The notes under the pieces: model-generated
The model's database searches: none
What the model was told of the DNA's origin: nothing
What the model saw: only the letters and a program-made list of their open reading frames with translations
Made by a program: the position numbers and the translations under genes
Source: Blasia pusilla
Taxonomy: Eukaryota
Reading direction: 5' to 3'
Length of the DNA stretch: 64,000 bases
NCBI GenBank assembly: GCA_050084515.1
Contig: CM114271.1
Coordinates: 46,996,001-47,060,000 of the forward strand
Shown here: positions 2,193 through 51,233 of the stretch, piece after piece
Numbering within the stretch: position 1 is the stretch's first letter
How the letters are laid out: each line of letters starts with the position of its first letter

Positions 2193-3188
2193 TATCACAT
2201 CTTAGTTAACCATTGTGTAGAGTTCTATCGTATCAACGACGTAACAAGTTAGAAGGTCGTTCGAGCATATATTTATTTCGAGAAGTCTGTTATGCCCATA
2301 TACATTGTTGTCACCAAATATAATTCCATAAATAAAATATGTCATAATCACTCATGACATTTGAATAACAAAATAATTAAGTATAAAAATACCTCCAATA
2401 AATCAAAGATTACTCAAATCTCTCAAAAAATCTTCATCTCTCTCTCATGTCAAATCAAACTCATTCTCCTACTGAGAGGCTTGGATTACTTACAAGGCAA
2501 GGAGAACCATATCTCCGCCACCTCATGCCAAGAGGTTCAACAAACAGAGAATGAAATCAAAAGCTCTCTTTTATGGTATATACCTTCTCTTTCCCCCAAG
2601 CTCTCTCCACAATAACATGGGCTCGCAAGTTATCTCATTGGTTCTAGAACCACAATAGGGGGTCAAGGGTCACTTGTATAAGTAGTCAATTATGCTTATG
2701 TTAAAAACTTACCTCAAATGGTAGGTTCCTCAACATGAATCCAAATGAGCCAAAATAAATGAGAAACATATATCTCTCAAGGTATCATAGGCCTCAACAA
2801 GTCATCCTTGATCTCTTGAGCTTGTCCTTCAATCTCCTCGAAGGAAATCTACATATAGTTGTACATCCGTCTTAAAAGACATGACATCTCAGATGAAATT
2901 AGCGACTACTCGGTTGGATTAGGATTATCTTATAGTAAAATCCCTCTCTAGTGCTATTTGGGTTAGGTTATTAACATGTTGATCGATTCAAAAATCATCT
3001 GGTAAGTTGTGTGCGCACATTGCCAATATTGGGTTGTTTTAAGGGGAAGAGCCTTTTGGCTCTTCTTAGGGGTATATATGTGAGAGAGAGAAGGCTTCCA
3101 CAAGCCATTGTTATTATATTGAGCCTTTGTGAACATTCAGGCGTTTAGAATTTGTGTTTAGGGCGTAGCGATATGTATGTGTACAACA
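2193..3188 (+). mobile_element. Internally deleted unit of the same family (subfamily of 9521-11249), interrupted by a nested copy
   Basis: Starts TATCACATCTTAGTT (cf. TGTCACATCTTAGTT at 9521). Shares the TATA/GAGAGAGA/TTGAGCC block. Ends GTAGCGATATGTATGTGTACAACA. Flanks AGAA/ACAA. Confidence 0.7.
2288..2886 (-). mobile_element. Older A-B unit, inverted, nested in 2193-3188
   Basis: Reverse complement aligns with 1365-2050 (TGTCATGTCTTTTAAG...GGGCATAACA), with a direct A|B junction GATTTA|TTGGAG near 2400. Flanks AGTC/TCTC are each one change from the host sequence TGTC seen at the equivalent site near 9612. Confidence 0.75.
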
Positions 3189-4809
3189 ACAAAATCTACT
3201 GATCGATAATAAATCAAATGATAAGAATATATTATAGTAACAATCACAATAAGAATAGGAAATTTTAGCTAAGACATAAATATCCTCATTACAAAAGAAT
3301 CCATGCCTAAGATGAAGAGAAACAGTCATATTAAAAGAGATGGTAACTCATTGTTCTATTAAGGGCGTTACTACACTTTGAGGACTAATGAAAGAGTATC
3401 ATTTGTGAATTTTGGCCTTGAAATCAGTTGATGATGCTCTTTTTTAAAACTCTTACCCTACATGAAGTTGAAATGTAGAATGAGGGGAAGGCTTTAATAT
3501 TTAGTTATTTTTAAAATTTTCATAAGAGTAATTCATTAAATTTTTTTAAAAATCCCAAATAAACATTTAAAGTCTTCCTCATGTTTTCGTCTTTCTCATT
3601 TAAAAATAAAATTCAATTTTTAGAAAGTTTTATGCCATATTTTATATTATAAAAATTAGTTCTCACATTTAGTTTGGAGGGAAATTTTATTCATATATTG
3701 GGAAAAAATGAAAAAGGATAATATAATCATGTTGGAACAAAAATTATTCTTCAAAATAATAAAATAAAGTTTATTTATACAATAATTGTAATCTTTGAGC
3801 TCGGTTGGGAGAAAATGTTGATCTCTATTTTGGGTTTTTTTCCAAAATTAATGATTTTATTTTATTACTTGAAAGATGAAGATTGGAAAAGGAATATTTT
3901 TTTTCTTTAATTACTGCATTTATTCGCGACATGCTAAATGTTAACCCACTTTACGTACAGTTCATGTCTCTGATTGATTCCACGTTAGGTATCGAGATCA
4001 AGTACAATGGTTTTCACAGTGGGATTTTCTAGGTTGATTCCCTTATGAATTGCCCGTTTATTGGGTGGAACTTTGGGTATCCACAACCGACAGATCCCGA
4101 CTTTTTATATCAAAAAGTGAACCTAAGAGTCAACGAGCTCTACTCACAATATATTTTGTTGATTGAACTACCTAACCCAACGTGTGGTCTTGTAATCTTT
4201 CCTGCATGCTCTATTGAATCAAATTTTAGGGCATCGTGAGAGAGAGGGCAAGTAACCCATAGTATGAATGTCGATCCTTACAATACATAACTTAATGTTT
4301 TGCACGTTGTCAAGTATTTACTATCCGTAAAAAAAAAAGGCAATCATTCGACATCTTTCATAACTAGAGTGTATTCCTAAGAGAGTCCGCGCATGCCAAG
4401 GAAATTTTTCTTTGTGATAAAAATGGTATATCGGTAGACACGATTCTCACTAATGAAACAGGGATATTCCCATTTTTGTTCCAGTATCCTAAGGGTTACT
4501 TCACTGGCCATTGCTCATTTGTTGGTTTTCTTCACATCTAAGCGAAACAAATTTTTAGGGTATTCACACTATATAAGTCGTATTTACTTATCAAGCACTA
4601 GCCACAATAATCCATTTCCTTGGCATCTAGTAGCCCCTCATATATATTATACAAGGAACTAGATCAACTAAAGTGAAAATACCCAAGCCTTCTTAACCAA
4701 GAACTTTATTTGCACTTATCAAAATACAACGTTAGTGCAAAAATTCCAAGGAGCCCAGGCTGGCATGGTCGACACTTGAAAGACCTAAAAAAATGGTTTA
4801 AAAGTGGGG

Positions 4810-9520: not shown

Positions 9521-11249
9521 TGTCACATCTTAGTTTGATGTAGGTAGAGTTCTATCGCATTTGACAGCATAGAGAGTCGGCGGGATATTCGGGTGTAACT
9601 TCATCCCGAGATGTCGGATGAGGTTGGCGACATGTCCTTTGTGTCGGGAACGTCGTTTATGGTGATTTTCTTATTTTGGTTTTAGTTCATCAGGTAACCC
9701 GTTGACCAGGTCAACAATCACCCAATAACCTGTGCACGCAGGTTACTGTTGGGAGGGCTATTTTTGGGGGAAGAGCTTTTTGGCTCTTCCCAAGGATATA
9801 AGAGTGAGAGAGATGGCTTTCTCAAGCTATCTTTCTCATGTTGAGCCTTAGGAGCGCCTCTCTTATATAGACGTATGTGGATGTGTAGGAGTTAGGGTGC
9901 TTGTGTCCGGATTCCCTCATAGCAGAGGGTGAATGTGGTTCGATATGTCGATGTAGATTCATGAGTGGAGTTTTATGCGGGGTGAGCCGTTTTTACTACT
10001 CTTGATTTTACATGGGAAAGATAAATCATAGCAAGTGTGGTGTCTGAGGATTCCCTCATAGAAGAGGATGGATGAGGCTCGATATTCAGAGGTAGTTGAG
10101 GAGGTGGTGGACTTGCCCTCAGAGCAGGTGCTCGGGATGTTCCCCACTGAGGCATGGCATGGTGCGGCAGCGAAGTTGGTAGATATGCCAGCTAGGCCAG
10201 CAAAAGAGGGAGCTATGATCACACCAGGTGTGATGTTGTTGGATAACCAAGCGAGAGTGTTTTGCTTGGTTAGTCCCACAGGTACGGTATACCACCGTAG
10301 CACGTCCTACTTGATTCGGGAGCCCAGCCCTTGATGTTAGGGAAGGCGGGATGTTTGGCGTTGGGTTTATGGAAAGGCGACAGCGAGCGTTGTCCCTTTT
10401 AGATACAGACCTGTATTGGGGGCGTATCACCCACGTAGTACATGACTCCACAGGAGTTGGTGGTTAGACTCCAGCCTGAGCATGAGTCGGATAGTGCGAT
10501 GGTGCGCACTCGAGCGATTATGACACCGACAGAGTCGTATGATATGTTAGTAGGGAGTACGGTGTTGTACCCTCTAGGTTTCATTCTAGATTTTTGGGAG
10601 GAGACAGTTTCATATCGACCAAGGTGGCAATCAAGTGATGGATGGGTGAGCCATCTACCGGTGCAGTTTGCAGGAATTAGTGGTGGTCAACCGCGTGAGG
10701 ATACGGTGACCACGTAGGCAACATTCACATGTGGCGTTCGTTGATCAAGAGGGTTTGGGGAGAGGAGTACACATGCGGAGGACATTTCTGTAGCGGACAG
10801 TCCCATTGAGAGACATGTCAGAGTGGGTGTCTCTTCCCATGGTGCAGAGCTTCTTTATTATTGTTGGGGACGAGCGTTGAGATGCATGGGGTGCAGACGA
10901 GCTCATGAGGCAGGCATGGAGCCGTGTCTATGTTTGGAGCAGGGTACGAGAGTGTTAGATCTCTTCGGAGGGATCAACACTACGGATTGCTGCAGTGTGG
11001 CAATGTTGCTGGGATGACGGCACCGATGGTGCTAGATGTGTGTAGGATAGGAGATCTTGTTGGGTATATATGTGTGTGATATCTGGAGTTATGGGACCCA
11101 ACTACAAGCTAGGGGGGCGGTTTTGGGGTCCTAGTGTATGTGCGTGAGTATGTTTCATTTATGTGTGGATATACCCGTATGTTGGGGAAGATCGGTGTTG
11201 TGTGGTGACCAGTGATGTGGATTGTGTAGCGATGTGTATGCGCACAAAA
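9521..11249 (+). mobile_element. Deleted A-internal-B copy of the DNMT-bearing Gypsy-like family
   Basis: TGTCAC start and CGCACAAAA end (consensus CGCACGACA), perfect ATAA TSD. A 9521-10010, self-complementary PBS 10010-10023, protease fragment, DNMT motif I, TAGGGGGGCG tract 11110-11119, then B. Confidence 0.85.
10068..10990 (+). pseudogene. Fragment of pol: aspartic protease region plus start of DNMT domain
   Basis: ORFs 10068-10334 and 10442-10717 align with ORF 55475-56641 (TPGVMLLDNQ; ESYDMLVGSTVLYPLGF.LDFWE). RVLDLFGGI near 10950-10975. Confidence 0.8.
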
Positions 11250-13129: not shown

Positions 13130-14300
13130 AATCCACAACATGAACCCCAACTTTATTCTTCTTCATTTTTTGACCCTCCTCTTCATCAAACATTCCATGA
13201 ATCATGAAAATTTATCACAACATGCATTTGAGTGTCATGATCCCACGAGAAAAGGAAAATCTCCAAATGCCCACCATGGAAGGAATGAAAAATACAAAAC
13301 CGTAAATGTGCTTAACCACTTTTAGATTGAACATGAAGTATGATATGGAAGATCCAAACCCTCCAAGTACCAAACATCCTTATCATGCCCATGTCCCTCC
13401 TATTCTAGTTCAATCCAACAGTGGTGACTCATGATGCTTCAGTACAAAGATCAAAATTCAAGAAGATTATGAACATTACTCGTAAATCACTCATATTCTT
13501 CTTTCTTCTTCATTTTTTGGCCCTAATCTTTACCAAAGAGTCCATGAACCATGAAAGTTTTTTAGAACATGCACTTTAGCCTCTGGATCCCAAGGGAAAA
13601 AAAGAACTCTCCAAATGACCACCCATAGAGGGAATACAAAATCCAAAACCGTAAATTTGGTCTCTCGTTTTAAAATGGAACATGAAATATGATATGGAAG
13701 ATCCACACCGTCCAAGAGCAAGAAGGCCTTTGCAACCCCATATCCATATGGTTTCAGCTCAATCCAACAGTAGGATCTTATGATGTTTCACTACAAATAT
13801 CAAAATCCAAATAAGACTTGGAACATTACTCGTGAATCCCTAATCTTCCGCTTTCTTCTTCATTTTTTGGCCTCCCTTTAATACAAAGTCCATAAATCAT
13901 GAAATTTTGTCACAACATGCATTTAAGTGTGAGGATCCTAGGGGAAAAAGAAGAAATCTCCAAATGACCACCCGTAGGGGGAATTAAAAATCCGAAGCCC
14001 TAAATGTGGTCTCCCATTTTTAAATTGAACATGTTATGGAAGATCCACACAATCCAAGAGCAATAGGGCCTTTGCAACTCCACGTCCCTATGGTTTCAGC
14101 TCAATCCAATGATGGGAACCATAAATATTTTCTCCTATTTTTAAATTGAAGATGAAGTATGCTATGGAAGATCCGCATCATCCAAGAGGAATAGGGCCTT
14201 TGTAACCCCACATTCCTTTGGTTTCAGCTCAATCTAACAGTGGGAACTCATGATGCTTCAGTACAAAGATCAAAATCCAAAAAAAACTTGCAACGTTACT
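13130..14300. repeat. Diverged tandem array, ~345-bp period (about 3 units plus a partial)
   Basis: Anchor TATGGAAGATCC at ~13344, 13693, 14035 and 14163. TTCTTCTTCATTTTT, TCTCCAAATG and TCAATCCAA blocks recur. Confidence 0.8.
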
Positions 14301-14689: not shown

Positions 14690-16290
14690 ATCAATGACGC
14701 GACATTGCCTCACATATAACATTGGGTGCTGCCTTATACTCAACCTCTATTGAAGATAAAAAAAACTATAAGTTGCTTCTTAGAAGCTCAGCTTATATGT
14801 GTGCTTCCCGAAGTGAAGGAATAACTATAAGTAGAATATCTATTAATTAGACATGATTCCTATCCAATCAGCATATGTATATCTCTCCACTTATAAACTT
14901 AGAGAACCTTTAAATTTATGCCCAAACCGAACATAGAGTATCACATATTGCATAATCCTCCACACAACACCAATGTGAGGTTTGTGAAATGCTTGCATGA
15001 ATTGACTTATTAATCAAACTGCAAAGCTTAAGTCAAACCTAATTAAAGTTATACAAATCAAACTTCTAACCATGTGCTTGAACATATTGGAATTTGCAAG
15101 CAACTTTCCTTCATCCAATATTGTCTAACAACATAGATATTGGCTTACAAGTTGTTATACTATATTTTGAAAGCATATGAAGAGAATATTGTCATTATAA
15201 TAACCATATGTTGTGTCCAACCTTGATAAACTCAACACCAAGGAAGTAATTAAGTTCTCAAAATTCTTTCATATCAAATCTCTACCTATAACTTTAGCTC
15301 AATTTGTTGTACCATATCCTTAGAACTCACACTAATCAAGACGTTACCAACATATAATACAATGATAATTGTATGACCTTTTCTTCTGAAAATGTGTAGT
15401 GAGGAATCAAAACTATCGACCTTTATGTCAAACAAACTCTCGTAAGACATACATAATTTTGCCTTACTAAAATCTTGGAGCCTCGCTTGAATACATATCG
15501 AGCTTTCTTTAACATGCATATGCTTAATCCAAGTGGTTAAGCCGCGTATACTTCCTCGTGAAAATCTCCATTCAAGAAGATATATTTTAATATCCATGTG
15601 ATGTAGTCTTCATTTCTTATTCATTCTAATTGCAACTACTATTCTTGTAGTTGCCATCTTTGCAATGGGGCTAAATATCTTCTCATAGCCAATACCATAT
15701 TTTTTTTATAGCCTTAGATACCAAACTGGCTTTGTATTTGTTTATTGTACAATCTTGATTATATTTGACCTTGTAAACCCATCTAGATATATGATTAACA
15801 GTTTTCTTACCTTGAGGTATATTAACCAGCTCCTAACTCTATTCTTGTCTTAATGCAACAAGTTCTTCCTCCATATCTTCAATCTATCCGACCTTACATG
15901 CAACTTCATAAAAACAACTTGGTTTATGTTCTTCAAGGGCAATCATCACATATTCATAATGTATTGCAAGAAATCCTTCATTTATAAATTTATAAACAAG
16001 ATGTATAACTCCCATTGATCTACAAAGTTGTTGTTTAGAGGTATTATCCTCTAACATCTAACTTGAGCTCTGACTAGTATCAACAAATTGAACATGTATT
16101 CTTTCCGACCATGAATTGAAAAGTCCATGATCTTTTGTGACCTTGCACTAGTACTTGGAAATTTTGTAGGTACTGTCTATAGATTTATAGTCATTTTCTC
16201 AATCTCAATAGACATGATCATAAGTGGAATGAATTCAAATGGAGCATACAATGACTTCAACTTATAAAAAACAACATTGCAACAAATAAT
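14690..16290 (-). mobile_element. Decayed Ty1/Copia pol (end of integrase, RT, start of RNase H)
   Basis: Minus-strand fragments KYKASLVSK, YEKIFSPIAKMATTR, HHMDIK, VLYVGNVLI (YVDD equivalent) and LNYFLGVEF. Similar to 49621-50922. Confidence 0.85.
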
Positions 16291-19004
16291 ACACTAGAAA
16301 GATGTTTGTGCGATGCACGAAAAATAAAGAAGGATTTGAAGAGCTTTTGTTAGTGTATAGCCCGTGAAGGGAAGGGATTAATGATAATTAATGTATACAA
16401 ATTCAAACTTTTTTTCTTGCTGCCTAGTTGCCACATGTCAAACATAGAGGTGTTTGCAAATCAAGAAGGCAAGATGATATACTGCAAAACTATTAATTAT
16501 ACTTGATAATAAAACTGAAATAAAAAGATAAGTAATAACAAAAAATCTATTTACTTTCCAAAACTTAAATGGAGAGAGGGAAAGAATAGGAGACTAGAGG
16601 AGGAATAGGAAGGAAAAAAATCAAGCCTAAATGGAGAAGAGGAATTAGTATTAGAAGGGGATTTCTTCTATTTTTCTTAAGGTGAAAAGAATTTAGAAAG
16701 AAGGGAATTAGTTTAAAATATAATAAATAAAAAACTTAGGTTCGGTACCCCAAACATGCCTAGGTTCTATACCCTGAACATGCCTAGGTTTGGTAGCAAG
16801 GCAGGTTCGGGCTATCAAACCTATTCACCCAACCCCTCCCGCCGCCTTCAAAAATCAAACGGCTCTCCTCGCTCAACCTAGATCTACTAGTCCATATTTG
16901 CTTCAAACGTGGATGTTACATATGGCATCCGACGGCTCCCATCAACTGCCACTCTCCCACATTTCCCCCTTCCCCTTTCTCCCCTACCCCCTCCCCTCAC
17001 TCCAAAGGAGTCCATTTTTTACCCTTCACACTTTGCGTCCCGTCCCTATCGGCTCTTCACAGATCGACCCTTCACACTTTGTGTCCCACCCCAGTTCGCA
17101 GCCTTGTTGAGATTGTCCCGCCCCTGATCGGCTCTTGGTCATTCTTTCTTGGCTCTTCTCAAGTTCTCGTGGTGCTCGACTCTTCTCAGATGCTTGATCA
17201 TGTTGTGCGGCTCTTGCTTGGCTGCTCGTGATGCTCAACCCTTGGCTCAGATGTTTGTGTTGCAGTCATATCGTTGTCCTTGTGTGTATGGAGCTCCTCA
17301 CTTGAGAGGAGCTCTGCGCACTCAAGAGTTTCTTTTCCCTCTTGTTTCAGTCACTCTTTTCCCGAACGTGATGTCATGCTGATTTTCGCCGCACCCGTCT
17401 TCCTTTACTCTATGCAAATGGCACTTTTGATGTCGTTGTGCGCACCAAGAGCCTCTCTCCTATCCCCTCTCCTCTGTGGGCTTCCTGATGCACTCCCGAT
17501 ATGGAGGTGGTTTAGACTCCTAGATCTCAAAGTTTGAGACGGTGTTGGCAGGCTGGAAGATTTGCTTCCACGTGTGGTTTTTGGGAGTTACTATTTTGCG
17601 CTCGTGTTTGGAGGTTGGTTGCAAGTCCAATCCGGCTCATGTTTGCACGAAGGGCTTCCTTCTCACCTGAACATGCTCACCCGCAAATTTTCCCGCACCC
17701 TCTACGTTGCTACCTCTCCTTCGTGGGCTTCATGCGCGGATCTTTCTTGCAAGAAAAAATCAACCATAGTGGGTTACTGCCATTGCACGAACCAAGAGAG
17801 TACCTTCGACGTGGGCTTTGAGCCTCGGCGCATCGGCTTCTTGCGGGTAGGGAGGGGAGGGAAGAATATTGGCATGTCTTTTTAGTATCAAAAGTTGTAG
17901 TGGGCCTTAGAGTGGCAAGCGGGATTGGGCTTGAGGGTTGTTACATCTGCGTGCGCAAGTAGGGTAAAAGTCTAGAGAACTCAAGTTGAGTACTCTGAGA
18001 CAGAGAAGGCTGAGTGTAACACATTTCATCTTACACCATGTATCCACAAGTAGCTTTCATTCTCAAGTAAGTTTTACATGTCTGTAGATTGCTATGCTAC
18101 TCCGGATCTGCAGAGTTGGGTCTTCCTAGCTACCAAGTCAGAGCACAATTTGGATATTCACTACAACACCTTTCCCCTTTTCCCCTTTCTGAGGCAACTT
18201 CTTTGTCGCCTTGTGATATGATTTGGGTGTAGTAGGCACATGAAGATCGACCGAGCATCTCTCGTGAAATGGTGAGCTACGCTCTTGTGGGTTGGGGTGT
18301 GGTAGTTTATGTCATTTCTTCGCAGATTGTCCCTCGATGGCGCATCCCTTTTTGTTGCTAGGCCTCCTAAGATTATAAGGGGGAGTCCCTTGGACTTCGA
18401 ACAGGACCTCATTTCTAGAGCCTCCCATAGGATTTGGAAAATACCCTTTGTCTGAAAACATAGGCTGTTCTCTCGTTGGTAGGGAGTCTTTTATTGCATC
18501 TTCGAAGCCGGGAGCGTGCTTGGGTATAAGTCTCTCACCCCAAGGAGGAGTATTGCGGAGGTGGGATTTCTTCCACTTACTCAAATGCTTACAATCCTCT
18601 TGGGAAATTGGAGACCATTTGGAGATCTCCAACGCTTGGAGATCAGCCGACTTTACATTGTAGTGCCTTTTTTATTATGTGATATTGGATACACTTTTTC
18701 CCTTCCCTTGTGTCGATTTCTCTGTTGTGATCCTCGTTGCCATTATATCTCGTTATATTATGTTGGCGAGTATGCTTGCAAGGTTGAGTAGGTATTTTTT
18801 GGCGCAAAAGGAAGGGACGGGAGTAGTTCGCGGCCTATCGAGCACAAGGTGAAGTCGAACCTAAAGGAGCACTTAAAGCTAGTTGGCGTTGTTGCAAATT
18901 GGAGTTAATAGGATTTTTGTGGACTAGAGTTTTTGAACCCGAGCGTTATTCAAAGATTTGTCGAGTACCTGCATTACAACAGGCAGATCGACCCGTTGAG
19001 TAGA

Positions 19005-19372
19005 TGTCATGACCATACGGATTATGTCGTAGAGTATGGTGTGCTGGTAGAGGCCATTCCTTATGTAGGACCGTAGTGGCTTGGTAGAGATGTGGTTCCA
19101 TACATAGGGTTGGGGGTTACTCACTTGGGGGTGACTTTCCTAGTAGGGCCCGCTCTTAGGTTGGAGGATATAAGGTGGCTTGCCCTCAAAGAACAATCAG
19201 TTCTTTGAGTTGAGCCTGTTGCGTTGGGAGTTAGCCTTGGTAGTGAGTAGAGCTCTTGGCTATGGTGTTTCCCGCAAGCTTCGACCTGGATTCTCCCATC
19301 GTGGAGTGGGTTTGGCTCGATTGTATGTGATTGTAAACGTGTTTTATGACAGTAGGTCTTTCACGGATTTCA
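19005..19372 (+). repeat. Repeat A1 (368 bp)
   Basis: Direct repeat of 28162-28529 with 3 substitutions by manual comparison. Confidence 0.95.
19169..19210 (+). promoter_or_regulatory. TATA box and predicted transcript 5' end within A
   Basis: TATAA at 19169-19173. CAGTTCTTTGAGT starts 29 nt later and is followed by TTGAGCC. The same spacing is seen at 9797/9828 and 29849/29878. Confidence 0.6.
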
Positions 19373-19384
19373 CTCAAAGAACTG
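19372..19384 (+). other. Putative self-priming primer-binding site
   Basis: ACTCAAAGAACTG directly after A1 is the exact reverse complement of 19198-19210. There is no TGG-starting tRNA PBS at this position. Confidence 0.75.
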
Positions 19385-20616
19385 GAGTAGATCGATGGTA
19401 GCTTCGATTGTAGATCAGTAGGATCTGGTCAGGGCTGATTGTGTACTCAGCCGTGGATGTTCGTGGCTTGTGGCCTATGTTGGAGGTGTGAATCTGGTGC
19501 GTAGTTGATTGAGAAAGAAGCGCCTTGCTGAGAGCTTTCCAACGCGCTGTAGATCGCCGGATTTCGTCAAGGGAGTTGGAAGTTATCAAGCATTGAAGAT
19601 TCTGGTTGTGTTCGACAGTTTTCTGATGTGGAGAGCTTGGAGTGCGGAAGCTCTGTTGAAGTTCATCCAGATCGGGTGAGAGGTTCCTATTGCTACTTGT
19701 ATTGTGATCTCATGTGAAGCTATCTGCTCGAGTGTGTGGAGCGTTGCGGATTTTTGCGTGCATGAAACTTGGCGGAAGCGCTGTCGGATTTGCGGTTCTA
19801 GAGGTGTATGGACAACAAGTTTGTCTGATTTTTAGCTCGGAGTACGGAGCTCAAAACCCTAAAGCGTTTTGAGGCTTCGAGGCAACTCGTGGTAGCTCGG
19901 GGCGAGTGGGCGTGAGAGGCGGAGTAAGGAGCAAGGAGCAAGCAAGCAAGCAAGCTTGCTTGCTTGGGCGTGAGGCAATTTTTGCAGGATTTGGGATTTG
20001 AGTTTTGCATAACTGGTCACCCATCTTTGGGCTATTCTGCCTGGAGGACGCTTAATTGCCGAGTTCTTAACTATGCCTTGCATGCATTGTTGTAGCTCAT
20101 TTGGTGTTGTTCGGAGATGTGTTAGGCGCTTTATGCATCTCAGGTTTTGGTTGATGTACCTCTAGCGCATAGTACGGTGTAGCCTCTCCATGCGGTGATA
20201 TTTTCAGGGTCTTTGCTGGCGTTCGACTAGCACGTCATCGACTGCGGCGGAGTAGCTAGCTATTTGCGTTAGAATTGTGTGGTGGGTTTTGTGGATTCAG
20301 AGGGCACCACGTTTGGTGGATTGTGTTACCTTGATTTCCATTTGCGATTGGAGGGTTGTCGTTGGATTTCTGTGTTTGGATCCCCTCCATCGTGCTTTTG
20401 CTTGCTTGGCGCCCATTGTTAGGGTTGACGCTGATTTCCAGAGTAGTGTTACTCCTGTGTGCTACCGGTAGTGAGGCTGGAGGGATGACGAGTAGATTGT
20501 GGGAGACTTCTTGTGGTGATGACAAGTTAGGTTGCCTACACCCATAGCTAGTAGAGCTAGAATAGTATAGCGACATCGACGTCACTTGGTAATTTGGTGG
20601 TGGTGCGGCATCGGCG

Positions 20617-22100
20617 TTGGTCATCACGGAGTCTGCCGGGTGGTCGGTTGGGGACCGTGGTGCGGACAGTGGTGGTTTCACACGGAGTGGATTTAGGTAT
20701 CGGCTACATTTTCCACTTCCGACGATTGATGAAGAGGAGGACGAGGGTGTTCCAAACACCGAGTCTTCTACGTTGTTATCGAGTGTTGCAGCTCCATTGA
20801 TTTGGGACATGGACGGTGGATATGGGGCCATGAAGGGCCCACGACGATACTCGGGTGCAGTGGGTACCATTGAGTTGGAGGACTTCATGCAGGAGTTTGA
20901 TACGTGGTGTGATATGCAGATGTTGCGGAACGCCACGTTGTTTACACCCTTCTTGGCTTGGAAGGGGTTGTTTCAGCACTTGGAAGGACCACCCATGGAT
21001 GATTACCATGAGTTTAGGAAGGACCATGTTGCTGAGATTGAGGCATGGAGACAATATTGGTCTCCAGGCTATGTGTCTATCACCCATGGTGGTATTGGTA
21101 GTAGTGCTCCTACTATGCCAGCCAGCCCGACGCTAAGTGGTACGAGTACGAGCCGAAGTGGGGGTACCAGTGGAGGTACTAGTGGGGGTACTAGTGGAGG
21201 TACTAGTGCCCCACCATCGTTTAGCCTGGTTTCAGAGTTCTTCAAGAGGTTGAAGAAGAACTATCAAGGAGTGAAGACGGAGAAGTTGAGGAATCTTCAG
21301 GACTTTGAGCGAAAGACTGGTGAGAGTCTTCGTGAGGCATACACGCGTATCGACGCTTGATTTCAGATTACCAGGGTGTGCGAGGATCGAGCGATCCGAT
21401 TTTGGTATGGGATCTTGGACAGAGATTTGCGCCGTAGGGTACGTGATGCTACTCTTATGAGTGATGATTCACCCACATTGACCCATGTGTTTGCTCTATC
21501 TGAGAAGATTGAGCTTAACATGGTGAAGGAGAGAGTGGTGACATCCGCATTCAGTAGGGATACAACTACTACTTCTCGTGTTCAGCCGCCCACCTCATAG
21601 TCTCGTAGTAGTGGTGGTGGTAGTAGTAGTGGGAGTCGTGGGGGGTACACGCGACCTCAGTCAAGTCCTAGAGGGACATTTGTGCAGAGACCATTGCCTT
21701 CATTTGCTGCCCCGCAGCAAGGACAGTCATGTTGGACATGTGGAGGTGATCATGTTAGGAAGTTTTGTCCCCAAGAGGATGGGAGACGGACTTTGGAGGA
21801 TGGGCCTCAGTCGGCCCTAACTCAGTGTGATCATTGCGGGAGACTAGATCATCCTCGAGAGCGTTGCTTTGATCTTCATCCAGAGTTGAGATCAGGCCGT
21901 GGCCGTGGTGGAGTAGCTCCGAGAGGCCGAGGTGGTAGAGGTGGTAGGGGTGGTAGAGGTGGACCGGTGGTTGGAGAGCCCACGGTGGCTACCCTACCTA
22001 CCTACGACGCAGTCGCCTATGGTCGCCAGATTGAGCAGATTGGAGCGAGTGGTTGGCTACTATGGTGGTATCCAAAGATAGATCAGGTTCGGGAGCAGGG
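20617..22100 (+). pseudogene. gag-like region, frameshifted
   Basis: ORFs 20617-21360, 21376-21600 and 21682+ carry a Gag-like FERKTGESLREAY motif, two zinc knuckles (CWTCGGDHVRKFC, CDHCGRLDHPRERC) and an RGG tract. Homologous to ORF 56705-58342. Start codon uncertain. Confidence 0.85.
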
Positions 22101-22649
22101 GCTTCCACCTCTTATGGAGGGGATGATCTCTCTTATATGGCGAGAAAAGACAAACGAGTTGAGGCATCACCGCAGCGATTCTGAGAGGAGCCACTCGAGC
22201 GTCGAGCCACGTGGTGCTCTTGTGGAGTTGGACCCGAGGGATGAGGCGGGGGAGGCGAGGCTAGGCTTCCCAGTCATTCTTGTTGTCCGAGGTGCTTACG
22301 ACTCCATCCATGGTTCCTACGTTGACCTATTGAGCGGCGGTGGGGATCGAGGTATCTACATCGCGTGTAGTAGACACGGATGCAACATCCAATGCAAGAT
22401 TGCGGATGGAAACTTCGGTGTTGGGATCCCCATTGTTTTGCCACGGAGTCGATGGCTTTAGGAGTTGACTTAGCTCTTGTATTTGATTAGCGACCACGTT
22501 ATGTGAACGTGGGGGTATTATGCTACACGTGTTGAGGTGGATGAGGGTGTTGCGGTGAGCGACCCTCTATGTCGGAGTAGCATTGAGTACCGGTGCTACT
22601 TGGCGGCAAAGGCGTCAAAGATGGATGCATTACCCCCCGCCAGCCATTG

Positions 22650-23110
22650 ATCGTGAGAGGCTTACACTGGTGTATGTATGTTGGACAACCGGAGTGGGAT
22701 CTTCCGATTGGTGAGTCCTACAAGACAAGTGTATGGACAGATAGAGTCTTGTTAGACTCGGTGCCCAACCTTGATGTTGGGAAAGGCGGCATGTATTGGT
22801 TTGGGTATTCGGAGGTCGAGCTTGAGCCTTGCCCATTCCGATTCAAACATCACTTGGAGGAGCCAATGATAGGTCTCAATTCATGACACGGGAAAAGTTT
22901 TTATGAGTTGAGACCGGATCATGCGATCGATAGCTCCCGGTTGGGAGTATCTGCGGTAGTCACATCACCGAGTCGTATGATGTACTAGTTGGAGGAGCGA
23001 TTGTACCCGATGGGTTTTCAGATGGATTCTTGGATGAGACAACGTCTTCTGAGACCTGGTTGGCAGTCCGGGATGGACGTATGAGCCAAGTTCTGTGAGA
23101 TTTATTTATG
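22650..23110 (+). pseudogene. Retropepsin-like aspartic protease, frameshifted
   Basis: RVLLDS(GA) at ~22743-22765, ELEPCPFR and ESYDVLVGG, matching the protease region of ORF 55475-56641. Confidence 0.75.
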
Positions 23111-23459
23111 GGGCTCGACCAGGAGGGTCTTCCCCAATGAGTGTTAGCATCTCGTGGGTGGTTTTAGTGGAGTAGTCACTTGGCTAGGAGACTTTTGGAG
23201 GGTAATGTTTCGCTATGGATTCTCCTGCGCATGAGGAGGTAGAGGAGGTCCCTATTTTTGCAGCAAAGTGGCATCCTCATCGTTGGATGTGCCACTTTGG
23301 AGTTCAGCGGTGCACTACGGCAAGAGGTTGATCGCCTAGTGCAGGAGGCTTGGTGTGAGGTGTTATACCTCACGAGGAAGAGGAGGCCCACGGCGGACTC
23401 CTACTTCGGTCCATTAGGTTATCCCTTTGGATACTACACCCATTGTATGGGCAAGTATC

Positions 23460-24410
23460 CGGAGGGTATTTGTGTGTTAGATCTCTTTGGTGGGATTAGC
23501 ACTGGTTTGGCTGCGATGTTGCAGGCCGGTATTCTGTCTTGGAGATACGTGTATGTGGAGCGAGATGAGACGGCCCATAGAGTCTCATCTCGACATATTG
23601 GTCGATTGATGTGAAGATACCATGAGTTGTTTCCGCCATCACTATTCGTGGGTACCGGCGTGCTTTACCATCACACATTGCATTGTTGAGGCGCGCAGGA
23701 CCTTGAGAGGGTTGGTCCTGTGGATTTGGTGATTCTTTGGATGGCCATGTCGAGGGTCATACACGTCTTTGGTCGTGGTGAGGGATTACATGACCCTAGG
23801 TCTCGATTGTTTTGGGAGATGTTACGGGTGTTACGACATCTTCAGTTCATCGCACGTGCTCTAGCTTACATTCGGAGAATGTTCCATTGTTGGATGACAC
23901 TCGGACCCGGATGATGGCGAGTGTTCATGAGGTGCGGTCTTGGATTGGACCAAGCGGTGTTGTTGGATGTTGAGTTGGCTCGCGTGCACATCGCCCACGC
24001 TTGTGGTGGACAAACTTGTTGCCTAGGGAGGTTCTACGTCGAGCATATGATGCGGTCTGGCGGGATCCTCGCCTTACAATGGATAGTATCTTGAATCTTG
24101 GCGACTTTCTCAAGTGGTGAGGGTTATTGATCGGTCACCCATGGTAGTGGTGAACCGTGTGGGCGACCTAGGATGGCACTACCCACATTTGTGAGTTTTC
24201 GCGTCACATGCCCACGGGGAAGGTGGTCCCGGGCTTGTATGGGATTCTCATGTGCGGCGGTTGGTGGAGCCTAACGCTGATGAGAGAGAGCGTGCGATGG
24301 GATTTACTCTTGGCGTGGCGGCGGTTGCTTCTATTTTTGAGGCTTCACGACGTCATGTGTTGGGTCAGGCCATGGACTGAATTGTTTGACTTGGATTTTG
24401 AGTCTTGGTA
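23460..24410 (+). pseudogene. C5 cytosine DNA methyltransferase domain (DNMT3-like) inside pol, frameshifted
   Basis: Motifs in canonical order: VLDLFGGISTG (23474-), YVYVERD, WPC (23742-23750), ENV (23875-23883), SRAHRPRLWWTN (23980-24015), ERERAMGF (~24285). Confidence 0.9.
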
Positions 24411-24779
24411 TGACCGAAGCGTCGACTTCGGGACTATGTCGTGGGTCTTCCATCCCTTGTAATGAGCTCGATGGCTCCGGACGGTAGAGGCATCGGTAGA
24501 GGCAGGAGAGTAGTATTTTGCATCCTTGGAGTAAATGGGATGTAATGGTGGGCATGTGGAGTTGGTTGCTCATCTTTGGTGGAGGAGTTATTTGCTCGGA
24601 TGATGGTGTAGCTAAGGGTGTACCATCTTGTGAGGGGGTTGCGTAGCGACCAATGGCATAAATCCTCTCCCTCTAGTATGCCGGTGGAGGAGACTTGGGA
24701 GCCATTACTTGGGCCCAAGCTTACGGGAGGTGAGAAACGACGCTGACCACGGTTCCTACGTGCTTATAGGAGTTGTTTT

Positions 24780-26130
24780 GCCTTTAGCATGAAGGAGTTG
24801 GGTTCTCTGGTTGGACCGGTATACATGGATTGATTTGGCTAGTGATACGCCAATCTTCCGTCGTCCCTATCGATATAGTGATATGGAGAGGACTTGATTG
24901 AGTAGGACGTTGGACCTTTTGGAGGTGGATTAGTGGAGTTGTCGCATGGAGAGTATGCATAAGCCTTTGTCATGCTCGCTAAAAAGGATATGCATGGCAA
25001 CTACGGATAGGCGGATGTGTGGAGATTACCGTCCTATCAATCGGCAAACCAAGGCCGATAGGTATGCCATGCCTACACTGAGGAGATCTTTGATGTGGTG
25101 GGACATGCAAAGATTTTCAGTATTTTGATCTTCGAGCAAGATACCATCAATTGCCGATTCGGGAGAGTGACAAGGCCAAGAGAGCATTTTGGGGTGTCAA
25201 CTCTCATGGCAAGGATTGTTTGTACCGGTGGAAATTCTTACCCTTTGGGTTGAAGAATGCACTGCCGAGTTTCAAAGAGTGATGGATAGGATCCTAGCAG
25301 GGTTGGATTTTGTTCGGTGTTACATTGATGATATCTTGGTGTTCAGTAACACGGTGGAGGAGCATCAGATACATTTGCAGATGGTGTTTGAGCGGTTGAA
25401 AGCTCATGGTCTACGTTTGGATCCAGGAAAGTGTAAGTTCTTCCATGAGGATGTTGAGTACTTGGGTCATGTGATCTATCCAGGTGGTTTGGGAGTTCAG
25501 CAAGCAAAGGTGGAGGCTATTGCACTTGTTCCGCGTCCGGTAGATGTGAGTAGAGTTCGAGCATTCATGGGATTGGCGAACTATTATCGGAGGTATGTGA
25601 AGGGATTTAGTGCTATGGCAAAGCCTTTGAACCAATTGCTGAAATCAGATCAAGAGTGGCACCGGGAGATGATCAGAGAGAGCTTTTGTGGAGCTTAAGG
25701 CCCAATTGGTGGTGGCGCCTATCTTGAGGAGACCTATCGAGGGCGCCCATTCGATTACACACCGATTGGAGTAGGTGGGACTTGGAGCGGTGTTGACACA
25801 ACATGATGATGAGCACATGGAGTTTGTGGTGGCCTATGCAAGTCGTTCGAATAATGCAATGGAGGCGCGCTATAGTTCATATGAGGGAGAGTGCTTGGCA
25901 AGAGTGTGGGGTGGGCACACTTTAGGTGTTACTTGTTTGGCACCCGGTTTACCCTTATTCGATCACCAACCGCTCAAGTGGTTGATGGAGTCGGACAAGC
26001 TTACTAAGAAGGTTTGCACGGTGGGCTCTTATCTTACAGGAGTATGACTTCCAGGTGGTACATAGACCTGGAGTTGCCAACCTTGATGCTGATGGGTTGA
26101 GTAGGAACCCATGTACTAGCCAAGAGGATA
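24780..26130 (+). pseudogene. Gypsy-type reverse transcriptase and RNase H, frameshifted
   Basis: RMCGDYRPIN, LPFGLKN, CYIDDILVFS, YLGHVI, FMGLANYYRRYV, GLGAVLTQ, VVAYASR, DHQPLKWL, DADGLSR. Confidence 0.93.
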
Positions 26131-26499
26131 CAACAGGGGCTAGATGGCATGGCGAGGTTGATGAGGAGATGGTGCCAGGTTGGCATGCATCCGCCTTTTT
26201 ATGTTGGTTAGGTGGACTCTAGTATGGAGGACCACATGATATCTTACTCTAGTCGAGGGTAGATGGCCACCTTGAGATCCTAAGGTTGGAGATGGTGGTA
26301 CGGATCAGCGTGATATTCATGATGATGCGTTGGTGTTGGAGTTCCTACGGACCGGTAGGGTGCCAGGCATAGTGAGTGCCAAGGAGCGAGACCGTGTTCT
26401 TCAACGTGCTAAGAGGTATCGATTGGAGGGAACACATATTCTCGCGTGTGGGAGGATGGTAGAGTATGAGTAGTGCCACATTTGGCTCGAGAGAGCGCG

Positions 26500-27330
26500 A
26501 TTGTGCGACATGCCCATGAGGAGTTGGGACATTTTGGGGTAAAGCGACGTATAGCTTACTCCTTGGCCAATATTGGTGGCGTGGCATGCATACTCAGTGC
26601 GGCTAGATTGGTGTCACGTTGTATGGTTTGTGACCGGTGAGGGCATCATTTAATGCCCCTACACCACAATTACACCCCTTGCCTATTATGGGGTTGGGTT
26701 ACCGTTGGAGTGTGGACTATGCGGGACCGTTATCGTTGGATCACGACATCATCGATATGTGTTGGTGATGGTGGAGCACTTCTCCAAGTGGATTGAGTTG
26801 GTGGCATTACCGGACAAGGCGAGTGAGGAACGGCGTATGCGTTTTGGATAGAGTGCTTAGTCATTTTGGTGCACCACGGTGAAGTGTTGACCGACCAGGT
26901 ACAAAGTTTGTGGTGAGTTTCAGGTCTTGTGTGACAAGGCGTTGATTGATCATCGGACCACGCGTCTTGAGATCATCCCAGGCGGATGGTTTGGCTGGCG
27001 TGTGGTTCAAACGGTGAAGAGGGCATTGCGCAAGTATGGCCTCTGAAGGGCATCTTGGAGACTGGGATATTCGTTGCCATGGTTAGCCATGGGGTATAGG
27101 TTCGATCGCCAAGCATCCTTGGCTTCCTTCTCACCTTATTTTTCGTTTATACGGCCGAGATCGGACTTGCCAAGATCAATTGCGTCGGGAGTCTAGTGAG
27201 GTGGTGAACCTTGATGACCAGAGATGTGGATGAGGGTGTGTTCTCGCGAGTGGAGCTCTTCGGAGAGTTATGCCAGCGACCTTTGAGAATCTTGCCATTG
27301 CTCAACACGGGGATACGTTGCGGTATGCAG
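26500..27330 (+). pseudogene. DDE integrase, frameshifted
   Basis: HEELGHFG...CMVC zinc finger, WSVDYAGP, VEHFSKWIE, VLTD, HP.ADGL, SFSPYF..YGR. Confidence 0.88.
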
Positions 27331-27739
27331 GTTATCGACCATCGATTCGTAGGTTCCATGTGGGGACCATTTGGGTGGAGGTTATCGACCATCGTGTTAG
27401 CTTCGAGGTTCCATGTTGGGGGACTATGTCTGTTTGGAAGGACCATGTGCGTAATTGTGCGCCATGTCATCTTCCAAATGGATGGATGTATTGACCCAAG
27501 CTTAGCCATTTTAGCTTGAGGTGCATGGTGTTAACGCAGGAGTTCTCTATGTCTATTTGGAGACAACGTTTGACGGAGGCACTATTTTGTTCGTGAGGTG
27601 TTAGTTTGGAGTTCTCATGTTGGAGGGTCGTGATGGAGTTGTTTGGAAGGACCATGTGCGTAATTGTGCGCCATGTCATCTTCCAAATGTGGATGGTATC
27701 TTGTTGACCCAAGCTTAGCCATGATACGTGCTAGCTTGA

Positions 27740-27882
27740 GGTGCATGTTTGTGGGTCTCTGTGTAACGCACCCGTATGTTGTGTGTGATCGGTGTTCTAG
27801 GGGTTGGCACATGATGTGTTTGACTCCACGTTTGGATGTTGTTCCATCTACTTGGAAGGTGGGTTTGTCCTCGATGTACTTA
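27740..27882 (+). pseudogene. PHD finger at the C-terminus of pol
   Basis: RCM...VCDRCSRGWHMMCLTPRLDVVP...CPRC, matching the intact C4HC3 finger at 51240-51374. Confidence 0.8.
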
Positions 27883-28044
27883 GGAGAGGTAGATGACTTG
27901 ATCTTTGCATGATATGGATTACGGATGTGCGACTAACGATGGGGCAACCTAGCACCCGGCCTTCGATTCGGGCATCCAAGAAGGTGTATAGCATGTAGTA
28001 GATGTATAGGGCTACCCGGGAGTTAGAGGGACCTAACCGCCGAT

Positions 28045-28053
28045 TAGGGGGCG
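28045..28053 (+). other. PPT-like G tract immediately before B1
   Basis: TAGGGGGCG. The same TAGGGGGGCG motif precedes B at 11110-11119 and at 51051-51060 (minus strand). Confidence 0.65.
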
Positions 28054-28158
28054 AGTTGTGGTACACTTGCATTTGTGGATACTCGTCTATGTTATGTATG
28101 TATGTGCGTATGGTATGTCGGCGATGTATGTTGTATGGCGATGTGGATTCATACGACA
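28054..28158 (+). repeat. Repeat B1 (105 bp)
   Basis: Direct repeat of 28529-28635 (about 6 transitions and one 2-bp indel). Ends GACA and is followed by ATT and then A2. Confidence 0.92.
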
Positions 28159-28161
28159 ATT

Positions 28162-28529
28162 TATCATGACCATACGGATTATGTCGTAGAGTATGGTGTG
28201 CTGGTAGAGGCCATTCCTTATGTAGGACCGTAGTGGCTTGGTAGAGATGTGGTTCCATACATAGGGTTGGGGGTTACTCACTTGGGGGTGACTTTCCTAG
28301 TAGGGCCCGCTCTTAGGTTGGAGGATATAAGGTGGCTTGCCCTCAAAGAATAGTCAGTTCTTTGAGTTGAGCCTGTTGCGTTGGGAGTTAGCCTTGGTAG
28401 TGAGTAGAGCTCTTGGCTATGGTGTTTCCCGCAAGCTTCGACCTGGATTCTCCCATCGTGGAGTGGGTTTGGCTCGATTGTATGTGATTGTAAACGTGTT
28501 TTATGACAGTAGGTCTTTCACGGATTTCA
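28162..28529 (+). repeat. Repeat A2 (368 bp)
   Basis: Copy of 19005-19372. Begins TATCAT instead of TGTCAT. Confidence 0.95.
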
Positions 28530-28635
28530 GTTGTGGTACACTTGCGTTTGTGGATACTCTCGTCTATGTTATGTATGTATGTGCGTATGGTATGTCAGCG
28601 ATGTATGTTGTATGACAATGTGGATTCGCACGACA
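28529..28635 (+). repeat. Repeat B2 (107 bp)
   Basis: Joined directly to A2 (GGATTTCA|GTTGTGG). Ends CGCACGACA, followed by the TSD. Confidence 0.92.
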
Positions 28636-29541
28636 TAGAGCTACTTGAAAGCTTACCCTTCTCGACTACAATAGTAGAGCCTTGAATAATACATAAGTGC
28701 ACAATAGAGCTCTAAGATCCCTAACACAACCTACTATATAGTTGTTATCGACTAAAGAAATAAATCTCAACAGCTTAAGCCTTTATGGCTTCTGTAAAAC
28801 AAAATGCATGTGTGTAAAAGCAAACCTCTTTTAAGTAACGGCTTGGAGTGCGCGCAATGAATGGAGTCTTTCAATTGGATGGAAGCAATAAATATTTTGT
28901 TATGTAAGCTTGAAACCCTAAGTGTGGCATATGATAACTCTTCGAGAAATGGGAGGATGTCTACATCGACGGATGTCCCTTGTCAAATCGTAATTTTCAG
29001 CAATACAAAATTGAAACCAAAAAAAAAAATCCATTAAAACATTTTGCGGCAGATCTACAGAGCATCCATGAAAACCGAAAACCATAAGATGATCACGTGG
29101 GAAACATGCGCCCCACGCGGCTCAAAAGGGAGTCATATGTGAGGAATGCTCGAAAAGAAATAGAGCATACTTTCATTTGTGCAAAATGCCACGTGTCAAT
29201 AACGCGAGAGTTTGCACTGCAAGAGAGCATTTGTGCGTAATATCATTTCTTTTTTAGATAATGGAATGTAGCACTTATATCCCTGTAGTTTCATCAACAT
29301 GGCCAATGAAGATACATCTCTCAGATTTAAGATATAATTAATTTCTCTCATCTCTCAAAAGAAACAGGTGCATAACAAATACAACCAAAAGATTTTAGGA
29401 ATAAAATATCTTCCATACTGCATATGAAGAGGTCAAATTAATTCTTATCATGAACTTGTGAAGTTAGAGTTTGATTTATTAAGACTATTACACACACTAC
29501 AACGTCTTTCCAATAAACATTAGGTATGTTCTTCTCATTTA

Positions 29542-30394
<853 letters not shown>

Positions 30395-39800: not shown

Positions 39801-42249
39801 ACATGGCACCGAGTACCCATTAGTTACTTAATAAATTTCTAAGATAAGAAAATGAATAAAATAATAAAAGAAGGTTTTCCGTATTAACCTACAAGTTATT
39901 TCATGAAAATATCCCATTTCGTTTCATAAATAATAACGATTATTAAATAAAAAATTCCAGTCTAATCGATTGAAACAATAATAGTCGTATTTATTCCGAA
40001 ATGAAAAAGACCGTTCAGTCCACCGCATCTTAAGTAGCGCCCAACTAACAGGCACTGTAGAGAGCACGTCCTTCTCCCGCTATTCGTCGGTCTTCCGCGA
40101 AGGAGATTCTCCTACCTCTCCACCGCCGCTCTGACGGGACGTCGCACTTCTCCCACGCGGGCCTCATAAGAAACAAAGAATGTCCCTCGCTGGAGGGTAG
40201 GCGGCAGCGGGTGGGCCCATGTGGATGCGCCTGTAGTCTCCCGCGACAACAATACACGTCCACGTACGCGTCTTTTGTTTGCCAGAGCTGAAACATCGAT
40301 AAATTCAAATATCCGATTTACAAAATGGCGGAAAATGCAACGAAAATACGAAATTTGCTGTTCTCCGAATTATTATTATTATTAAGAATACTCTTACTTT
40401 GTTTATCTTATGGGTAATGTATCCTTTTCCCGCGCTTGTCGCGTTGCTGTGTCCCAGGGGGTGGACACCCAACGGCCCCAAAAGCCATGTCAGATCTCCT
40501 ATCCCTCCATCTCCACCGTGCGCCCATGGCCGACGTTCATCGTCATCTAAGTGGCAGAGTGACCATCGTCGGATGTGCCATGTAGATGAACTAGTCAGCA
40601 CCTCATCTGCCGTGTAGATGGACTAGTCAGCAAGACGGACGTTTTCCGAATATATATACATTCTTATTCTCCCACGGATTCTTCTTCCGACACGCTCCAC
40701 AACGGGTATATGACCGTAGCGAGATAATATTAATTTCCACCAGAATTTCAGAATATAGGCCGGAGGAAAATCCCAAGGAAATATTCCAGCCTTCGGATGT
40801 CCATCTGACCGTAAGGTCCGGGTTTTATTCTATTTAAAAAGTCTATTATGAGTGAAAGAACTTCCGGTAGAAAAACGGCACGTGGAATCCGGATTCTCGT
40901 GGAAAACGTCATATTCAAGATTTGTTTTTTCCCGTTTCGCCATTTCGAGATATAGGTCCCACCGCAGGGCCCGCATCCTCGCCTGAAATAGCCAAGTTGT
41001 AAGTTGGGGGGCGGGGTCGGAGTGGACGACCAGAAGACCTCCAAAATGGAGAGCCCGCTAAAATAAGCGGGAAGCACCAAACTGCCACTGTTGGACTGCA
41101 GTTCATTTGATGGGCGATTCTTGAATGTCTGTCTGCTTCTTCTGCTGCTGCAGAAGAGAGAATGTTTGTGGAAAGGGGAGGGACAGAGATTTAGTGCGAG
41201 AATTTGGGAATGGGTGCGGCGGGTTGCCGTTGCCTTGACGCGCACTGTTGAGACTGCATTCCTGCTGCCTTCCTATGGGAGTCTCCTGATTCTGTGAAGA
41301 TTTTCTGTTGCTGAAATTGCCTTGATTCATCTCTCTCTCTCTCTCTCTCTGTGATAAATTCGTTCCTGCACAGAGGGGGATTGTTTGAGAGGCGAAGGGG
41401 AGAAATTTGAGTGGTGGAGAAACAGATCGACTTGTGTCTGTGAGGGGTGTGCTGAATTGGAGAGGTTAGTGTTGGAAGACTGATGATTACTGGGAGGGTG
41501 TGGGAGAGCATTCTTGGGGCCCCGTGGTGGTGAAGTGCTTGCAATCGATCGTGGGAGTGGTCAGCACATTTGTACTGAAGTCCAAGGTTTTTGCAGTGAA
41601 GGCAATGAGATAGTGTTTTATGCAGGTCCTGTGCAGTGCCAACGATCCGAGCACCTGACTGAGATGTGCCTCCTTTCGCTGTGGAAGGCTTCCTTAGTCT
41701 ACATTCTGCATAATCTGCTTCTTCAAATTAGATAGCATGCTCTGGCAATTACTCTGTACAGACGGCATTGTTGCTGTCAAGTTGGACTTCCGAGTAGTTG
41801 TTGAGGTTGCGTTCGAGGCGTAATCAGGGAAGCCATTCCCAGAATTGGAATCTTGGACGACTCTCGTGTTTGGGTTCTTTCAGTTCCACCCATCTCCTGA
41901 AATTACGCGGAGACTCTCTGGATCGCGAGTGGTGCAACCGCATCATCTCTACCATAGATTGTCGATCTTCTGAGCGGGAGACAAAATCTGCACTGCATTT
42001 TTGCAACCAGAGTAGTGCAGAGGACACGGCATTCATTCCTGAGGGAGAGTGCTCCGGAATCACTCTTCTGGCGAAAGGCATTGTGTTGACGTTTCGTGGT
42101 GGATTTGAGCATCGGGAAGTGTGTGAAGGAACTAGGTTTGGGGGAGGGATCAGAGGTCGGAAGCTCGAGAAGGAACTGGACTCACTTGAAGGTGAACTGA
42201 ACTTCCGAAGGGCTGTGATACCTCGTGGGAGTTGACAAGCAAGATCACC

Positions 42250-50922: not shown

Positions 50923-51233
50923 TGTCGTGCGCATACACATCGCTACACAACATACATCGCTGTCATCGAACACACACAAAAATACACACGATCCCATGCT
51001 AACTCATGGCATTCATACACAGAGGCGAGAAGTACCAAAATATCTCCAATCGCCCCCCTAGCCGGTGGTTAGCCTCTAACTCCAGATAGCCATCTATCCC
51101 TACCTACCACGACATACATCTCTAGGACGCTAAGAGCAAAAAAGCGGGGTGCTCATGTGGCCCCATCGTTAGTCGCCTTCCTATCAACCATATCACATAA
51201 AAAGTTGGAATCGAAACCTATCTAGTATCTCCT

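Follow-up and report, generated by a model that had tools for sequence, protein, structure and literature searches.

Gypsy-type elements with split repeats and a primer-binding site predicted to pair with the 5′ end of their own RNA

The window analyzed here, a stretch of 64,000 nt from Blasia pusilla, carries copies of a Gypsy-type element family that, judging from its sequence, most likely starts minus-strand DNA with the 5′ end of its own RNA, as has been established for Tf1 (Neumann 2019, PMC6317226). Transcription would start in repeat A, ~29 nt past the TATA box, and the first 12–16 bases of the RNA would fold back on a complementary site whose first base is the last of A; a cut by RNase H behind this duplex would then release a 3′ end for extension through U5 and R. 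When the plus strand later copied the primer, the site would be rewritten from the arm in each cycle, so that young copies would be expected to pair perfectly and subfamilies to covary. A sequence-only reading of the window had proposed Tf1-type self-priming from three copies, and the proposal gains support from the covariation of the paired strands, the position of the site at the boundary of A, relatives that keep the pairing with other sequences, and joints between repeats A and B that fall at the edge of the duplex. These A–B joints are the strongest positional argument for the predicted mode of priming.

Split-repeat layout of the elements

Element E1 lies on the forward strand between two identical 4-bp target-site duplications, TAGA (19001–19004 and 28636–28639), in the order A1, primer-binding site, coding region, polypurine tract, B1, ATT, A2, B2. 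Repeat A1 (19005–19372) starts with TGTCATG, ends with TTTCA, and holds a TATA box (19170–19174) together with the predicted R and U5 segments. The internal region (19385–28045), which is collinear with that of element E2 and interrupted by many stops, reads leader, gag-like, protease, methyltransferase-like, reverse transcriptase (RT), RNase H, integrase and PHD. The polypurine tract AGGGGGCGAG (28046–28055), whose context is conserved with E2, leads into repeat B1 (28056–28158), which starts with TTGTGG and ends with ACGACA. The linker ATT (28159–28161) joins the end of B1 to A2 (28162–28529, 368 bp), and B2 (28530–28635) is fused directly to the end of A2. A1 and A2 are identical at 365 of 368 bases, and A1 could also be aligned with the A copies of the related loci L003 and L017. 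Such relatives were drawn from 63 metagenome loci fetched via the methyltransferase region of the element (L numbers below). The family is also highly repeated in run X1, where 231,387 contigs were placed.

Element E2 (50923–58408, reverse strand) is collinear with E1 from gag to PHD and is broken by stops; its polypurine tract (51059–51050) and repeat B (51049–50923) were located on the same strand, and a search of 58200–63000 did not reveal its 5′ end. The remaining copies lie on the forward strand. E3, the second copy of the earlier reading, has a repeat A (9521–10010) with an internal region downstream that matches the protease region of E1 and E2. Copy 3 (29542–30394) is a short unit of A, primer-binding site, 128 nt and B (30272–30394), flanked by the duplication TTTA. 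A decayed short unit of the copy-3 subfamily (1365–2050) retains an arm (1703–1717), a primer-binding site (1882–1896, 13 of 15 positions paired) and B (1923–2050). Repeat B, which is ~105–130 nt long, starts with TTG and ends with ACGACA, follows the polypurine tract in E1 and E2 and also closes both short copies. On the reverse strand, a solo A repeat of the copy-3 type (2435–2886) starts with TGTCATG and ends near the expected start of the primer-binding site, with neither a site nor a B downstream.

The layout A-coding-B-A-B was seen in E1, in L017 and in the distant family L046/L047. Among the E1-like loci, B never stands before A at the 5′ end (seven of seven); the 3′ end is B-A-B in L017, L020 and L041, B alone in L006, L013, L014, L015 and L038, and cut off after B-A in L003. 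The linker between B and A measures 2 nt in L003, L017, L020, L041 and L033 and is variable in the contigs of X1. The polypurine tract abuts B in E1, E2, L003, L014, L017, L033, L041 and L046, and in L003, L014, L017 and L041 it is the same tract as in E1. Two like LTRs at the ends of the element were not found. Because the primer-binding site follows A and the polypurine tract precedes B, the LTR of reverse transcription would be made up of B, linker and A. We rejected an LTR consisting of A alone, which leaves B2 unexplained and has no target duplication at the end of A2, and an LTR of A and B in that order, since the polypurine tract adjoins B and not A.

The two A repeats of E1 are 99.2% identical versus 94.2% for the two B repeats, the six substitutions in B all being transitions; in L017 and L046 the A pair and the B pair are equally diverged. 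Conversion between A1 and A2 is our guess at the origin of the gap in E1.

Pairing, covariation and folding of arm and site

Recomputed from the window sequence, the pairings of the earlier reading stand. The E1 arm (19198–19210), which is the predicted self-primer and would provide the first bases of the transcript, is complementary at 13 of 13 positions to the predicted primer-binding site at 19372–19384; the E3 arm (9828–9841) pairs with its predicted site (10010–10023) at 13 of 14, the lone exception being a G-U; and the arm of copy 3 (29878–29892) matches its predicted site (30129–30143) throughout (15/15). All of these features lie on the forward strand, and those of E3 and copy 3 are likewise supported by pairing, fold and covariation. 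The motif reported directly 3′ of the upstream arm was also recovered (TGAGCC in E1 and E3, TGAACC in copy 3), as was the placement of the arm some 30 nt past the TATA box, with the TATA motif starting 29, 31 and 29 nt before the arm in E1, E3 and copy 3, respectively. One detail needed correction: the bases right after A do pair as claimed, but the downstream arm begins with the last base of A itself. In E3 the site places TGG directly after the CA of repeat A, like a tRNA-type site. Copy 3 carries a long (GA)n(GT)n microsatellite (29982–30098) in its predicted R-U5, between arm and site, and the pairing is undisturbed.

Perfect inverted repeats of at least 13 nt with a spacing of 80–400 nt occur four times in the whole window, three of them at elements (E1, copy 3 and the decayed copy), and 100 first-order Markov simulations gave a mean of 0.27 and a maximum of 3 per window. 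The fourth, a perfect 13-nt repeat (4393–4405 with 4614–4626), has no TATA box, TGARCC or A-type context and is the sole such pair of the window outside these elements. A possible fifth copy (arm 3108–3118, partner 3233–3243, 10/11) was dropped, as it lies in an A+T-rich stretch and ~0.5 chance hits are expected, a figure estimated by hand from 56 sites, two offsets and 600 positions with one mismatch allowed.

Pairing kept despite sequence change had been the core of the earlier argument, and the covariation analysis that it called for confirms it. Four sequences were aligned from arm to site, namely E1, E3, copy 3 and the decayed copy with its arm at 1703; a seven-sequence alignment, in which the arms of L033 and L046 were misplaced, was left out of the pair counts. 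In the four-sequence alignment, 97.3% of the cells of both helices are paired, compared with 35–46% when the 3′ partner is slid by 1–3 columns, and 10 of the 19 pairs have changed on both sides; none of 500 shuffles matched the observed covariation score. When the RNAs of E1, E3 and copy 3 were folded singly, the duplex closed the minimum-energy structure as well as the centroid in each case. The second of these helices joins the TGARCC motif to a downstream GGYTYG; in E1 its strands are TGAGCC (19211–19216) and GGCTCG (19314–19319), both on the forward strand. Its six pairs are paired in 100% of the cells of the same alignment, with one double-sided and two one-sided changes.

Between the TATA box and the arm lies a further stretch that resembles the element's own primer-binding site and covaries with the arm. 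In E1 this anti-arm (19185–19194, forward strand) is complementary at 10 of 10 positions to 19200–19209 and could pair with it across the predicted start site, leaving a 5-nt loop. The corresponding pairs are 9803–9814 with 9828–9839 in E3 and 29862–29869 with 29882–29889 in copy 3, with sequences that differ between subfamilies. Shuffled sequences did as well in 2 of 2000 cases for E1, 4 of 2000 for E3 and 85 of 2000 for copy 3, and in the decayed copy the anti-arm pairing is not significant against shuffles. In the genomic RNA, the anti-arm may serve to mask the internal arm copy that lies in A2, the 3′ A repeat.

The same design of arm and site, each time with its own sequence, extends beyond the three copies first described to the decayed window copy and to three related metagenome families. 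Complementarity in further subfamilies, on which the sequence-only reading had staked its claim, is thus kept in other samples and with different sequences: over 17 bp with one G-U in the E1-like L003, over 16 of 16 positions in L033, and over 18 nt with one mismatch in L046/L047. In L033, whose reading frames are nearly intact, and in L046/L047 the sequence is an unrelated one. At the outer end of the 13-bp core, E1 has a C-G pair and L003 a T-A pair; the core conserved among E1-like copies measures 12 bp. In every copy and family the last base of A is also the first of the site, and a TATA-like motif lies 26–31 nt before the start of the arm in seven of the eight tabulated copies, a spacing from which the arm is predicted to be the 5′ end of the transcript.

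Pairing is perfect in E1, copy 3 and L033, and two mismatches are found in the decayed copy, L006 and L038; in these sequences the pairing decays with the apparent age of the copy. In L012, L013 and L017 the arm is deleted. Independent deletions of the anti-arm/arm hairpin in old copies (L012 5575–5830, L013 5600–5856, and L017 5350–5600 and 14135–14480) look as if the palindrome were unstable in DNA. In the decayed copy the inverted repeat reaches 43 nt (1675–1717 with 1882–1924, 91%), taking in the arm and the sequence back to the TATA position, and B follows directly. It may be a retained longer primer, from an RNA with a start farther upstream, or a palindrome that grew at the DNA level. 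Across the 63 loci, a TATA-anchored search for pairs of arm and site returned 27 rows on the coding strand against 17 on the opposite one, and only L033 stood out from the background, which shows that searches of this kind are unspecific at 11–13 bp. Background likewise dominates a scan of all 63 loci for perfect 12-nt inverted repeats.

Joints, integration ends and alternative explanations

The joints between A and B have the ends that would be expected if the minus strand were self-primed and the plus strand primed at the tract. The last base of A retained is the one preceding the duplex in the window (A2/B2), in L017, L020 and L041, and in contigs of runs X1, X14 and X17, and B starts at the base after the polypurine tract in the window, L017, L020 and L041. 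The joint 19371→28054 is present in three contigs of X1 and in one each of X14 and X17, and joints in both directions, A to B and B to A, recur in the contigs of these runs. One contig of run X13 spans 19187–19467 and ends 11 nt upstream of the E1 arm; contigs cannot show RNA starts, and with the RNA label of X13 a guess, this one is at best a hint.

A structural leader RNA that acts in packaging, dimerisation or translation control, or brings the ends together, while another primer starts the minus strand, would also account for a conserved duplex. The second covarying helix and the upstream anti-arm do resemble a larger folded domain, and the repeat layout is shared with DIRS-type elements, which replicate differently from LTR elements. 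A leader of this kind is nevertheless unlikely: the A boundary offers no second candidate primer site, all families have the last base of A as the first of the duplex, and the A–B joints sever A precisely at the edge of the duplex. Nor are a folded domain and self-priming exclusive, and Tf1 self-priming requires such a folded structure. Priming by a host tRNA or tRNA fragment, with the LTR match as a secondary feature, would fit the TGG that directly follows CA in E3, yet the five families (E1-like, E3, copy 3, L033 and L046) have five unrelated sites, each matching its own LTR over 13–18 nt, and only the site of E3 starts with TGG. Moreover, the reverse complement of the E3 site would demand an A+T-rich acceptor end, which is unusual in nuclear tRNAs, and we consider tRNA priming very improbable. 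A scan for tRNA genes in the window and in 37 of the 63 loci found none, nor did the window match any Rfam family.

That the pairs arose by chance, or are palindromes at the DNA level with no role in replication, seems hardly credible. An unrelated perfect 13-nt pair does occur in the window (4393/4614), inverted repeats can self-extend by template switching, and the arm region is prone to deletion; against this stand the excess of pairs over the simulated 0.27 (four, with three at elements), their constant position with respect to the TATA box and the A terminus, and the covariation across families and samples. Some observations do speak against self-priming itself, namely the inverted repeat of the decayed copy that runs back to the TATA position, the TGG of E3 and the deletions of the arm.

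If self-priming is accepted, the earlier claim that the site fixes the U5 end at the end of A is upheld in the sense of reverse transcription, but the integrated element does not stop where A does, since B follows the polypurine tract. Integrated copies run from the first base of A to the last base of B. The 4-bp flanks match at 4/4 positions in four of eight copies, taken from the window and the loci, and at 3/4 in the other four, where the chance of a match is 0.5% for 4/4 and 5.6% for 3/4.

The LTR of reverse transcription would accordingly be out of phase with the ends of integration, and we tentatively raise the possibility, without favoring it, that integration proceeds from circular or head-to-tail cDNA in which the DDE integrase cuts at an internal CA-NN-TG site within the LTR. 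If this were true, one cut in a two-LTR circle would yield A-coding-B-A-B, and cuts at both sites would yield A-coding-B units and small A-B units, both of which are also seen with target duplications. The A/B joint would be the circle junction, at which the decayed copy would keep a copy of the self-primer, and a repeat layout of the tyrosine-recombinase type would be explained in an element with a DDE integrase.

Coding domains and relation to known systems

The set and order of domains are those of Gypsy-type elements, with protease, RT, RNase H and DDE integrase. Pfam matches in the window elements cover RT, RNase H, the integrase core and the PHD finger (E 9e-11 in E2 and 2.6e-10 in L033). 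The parts of E2 comprise gag with zinc knuckles, protease, methyltransferase region, RT, RNase H, integrase and PHD finger, of which the gag, with two zinc knuckles, and the protease-like stretch were read from the frames by eye. L033 exceeds the curated cut-offs for DNA_methylase (E 1.8e-13), RVT_1, RT_RNaseH, Integrase_H2C2, rve and PHD, in that order, with an aspartic protease just below cut-off. No chromodomain match was found after the integrase of E2 and L033, where the PHD finger takes its place, and L033 gave no tyrosine recombinase match, its integrase being represented by the rve and H2C2 domains. A single in-frame stop (L033 5083–5085) separates gag-protease-methyltransferase (1369 aa) from RT-RNase H-integrase-PHD (1047 aa) and may be either a stop that is read through or one isolated mutation.

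The methyltransferase region lies between protease and RT (54211–55500 on the reverse and 23400–24400 on the forward strand of the window; 3790–4240 in L033). Pfam gave no match on the protease–RT stretch of the window's own decayed copies, so that the domain was recognized there only via relatives, and PDB sequence searches with the window's methyltransferase region returned nothing useful. The methyltransferase stretch of E2 is 60–29% identical to 20 proteins, 15 of which carry PF00145 and four a PHD finger. Among them are a protein of Calypogeia (60% identity), proteins of Marchantia (54%) and one of Sphagnum (44%), and the nearest named relatives of the elements are found in liverworts.

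The elements resemble Tf1 of S. pombe in the site beside U5 that is complementary to the predicted first bases of their own transcript, in the adjacent second helix and in the Gypsy-type domain order. The Tf1 self-primer is 11 nt long, compared with a duplex of 13–16 bp in the window copies and L033 (a 12-bp core in E1-like copies). In contrast to Tf1, a PHD finger replaces the chromodomain after the integrase, a cytosine methyltransferase is present in pol, the repeats are arranged as A-coding-B-A-B and not as two identical LTRs, the host is a plant, and priming is predicted from sequence. The elements lack two marks of the Tf1/sushi group, the chromodomain and the two like LTRs. In one survey, self-priming has been predicted for 12% of the plant elements, namely the moss and club-moss chromoviruses of the Tcn1 lineage and the TAR lineage of Ty1/copia (Neumann 2019, PMC6317226), with which the present elements share plant hosts including bryophytes, a probable lack of a tRNA-type site and a self-priming predicted from sequence. 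The term PHD has no occurrence in the text of that survey, whose supplements may list such families (PMC6317226).

The closest published relative is KnitGypsy-Dnmt3 of Klebsormidium nitens, compared here by its published description, which combines DIRS-type repeats in the order A-coding-B-A-B with a Gypsy domain composition (de Mendoza 2018, PMC5890265). The elements bear three structural and domain marks of this type, namely a methyltransferase in pol, Gypsy domains and the A-coding-B-A-B layout; as in KnitGypsy-Dnmt3, the methyltransferase within the pol of the Gypsy-type element is a cytosine methyltransferase (PMC5890265). The acquisition of the methyltransferase is treated in that paper (de Mendoza 2018, PMC5890265) as specific to the K. 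nitens lineage, whereas the nearest named relatives here belong to Calypogeia, Marchantia and Sphagnum. A primer-binding site, a polypurine tract, a target duplication and a PHD finger go unmentioned in the account of KnitGypsy-Dnmt3 given in its main description (PMC5890265). Beyond it, we found in the literature searched no other account of split direct repeats together with Gypsy domains and an integrase, and supplements may hold more. The layout A1-internal-B1-A2-B2 is otherwise that of Ngaro and PAT elements of the DIRS order (PMC8969392). The DIRS order is marked by a tyrosine recombinase and by the absence of target duplications, and the present elements depart from it on both counts, with a DDE integrase and 4-bp duplications.

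The priming mode is therefore known already, and what is new is its combination with split repeats, 4-bp duplications and a DDE integrase. Self-priming alone would merely add members to a known class; the interest lies in the type of element that would carry it, a family that unites a DDE integrase, a cytosine methyltransferase, a PHD finger and split repeats typical of tyrosine-recombinase elements, and that has relatives in liverworts and Sphagnum while being described, in the literature searched, for one alga only. A predicted primer-binding site after A and a polypurine tract before B would give a first concrete frame for the copying and insertion of such elements, and this frame makes the idea of a circular intermediate testable by ordinary sequencing of extrachromosomal DNA.

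CpG is depleted to 0.63 of expectation, which, together with the high repetition of the family in X1 and a GST-hemerythrin frame described below, suggests a land-plant host near the liverworts. Elsewhere in the window, downstream of the truncated E3, 13150–14300 holds three to four tandem copies of a ~349-bp unit that are 63–84% alike, and a further repeat pair (14707–15665 on the forward and 49627–50602 on the reverse strand, 69% alike) has its second copy abutting the end of the E2 repeat B. A fragment of a PIF/Harbinger-type DDE transposase (DDE_Tnp_4, E 4e-14) lies at 63447–63911 on the reverse strand. An intronless open frame on the forward strand (42196–43425) encodes N- and C-terminal GST domains with a weak hemerythrin match, and its nearest Atlas cluster is a GST-hemerythrin fusion that is commonest in Streptophyta.
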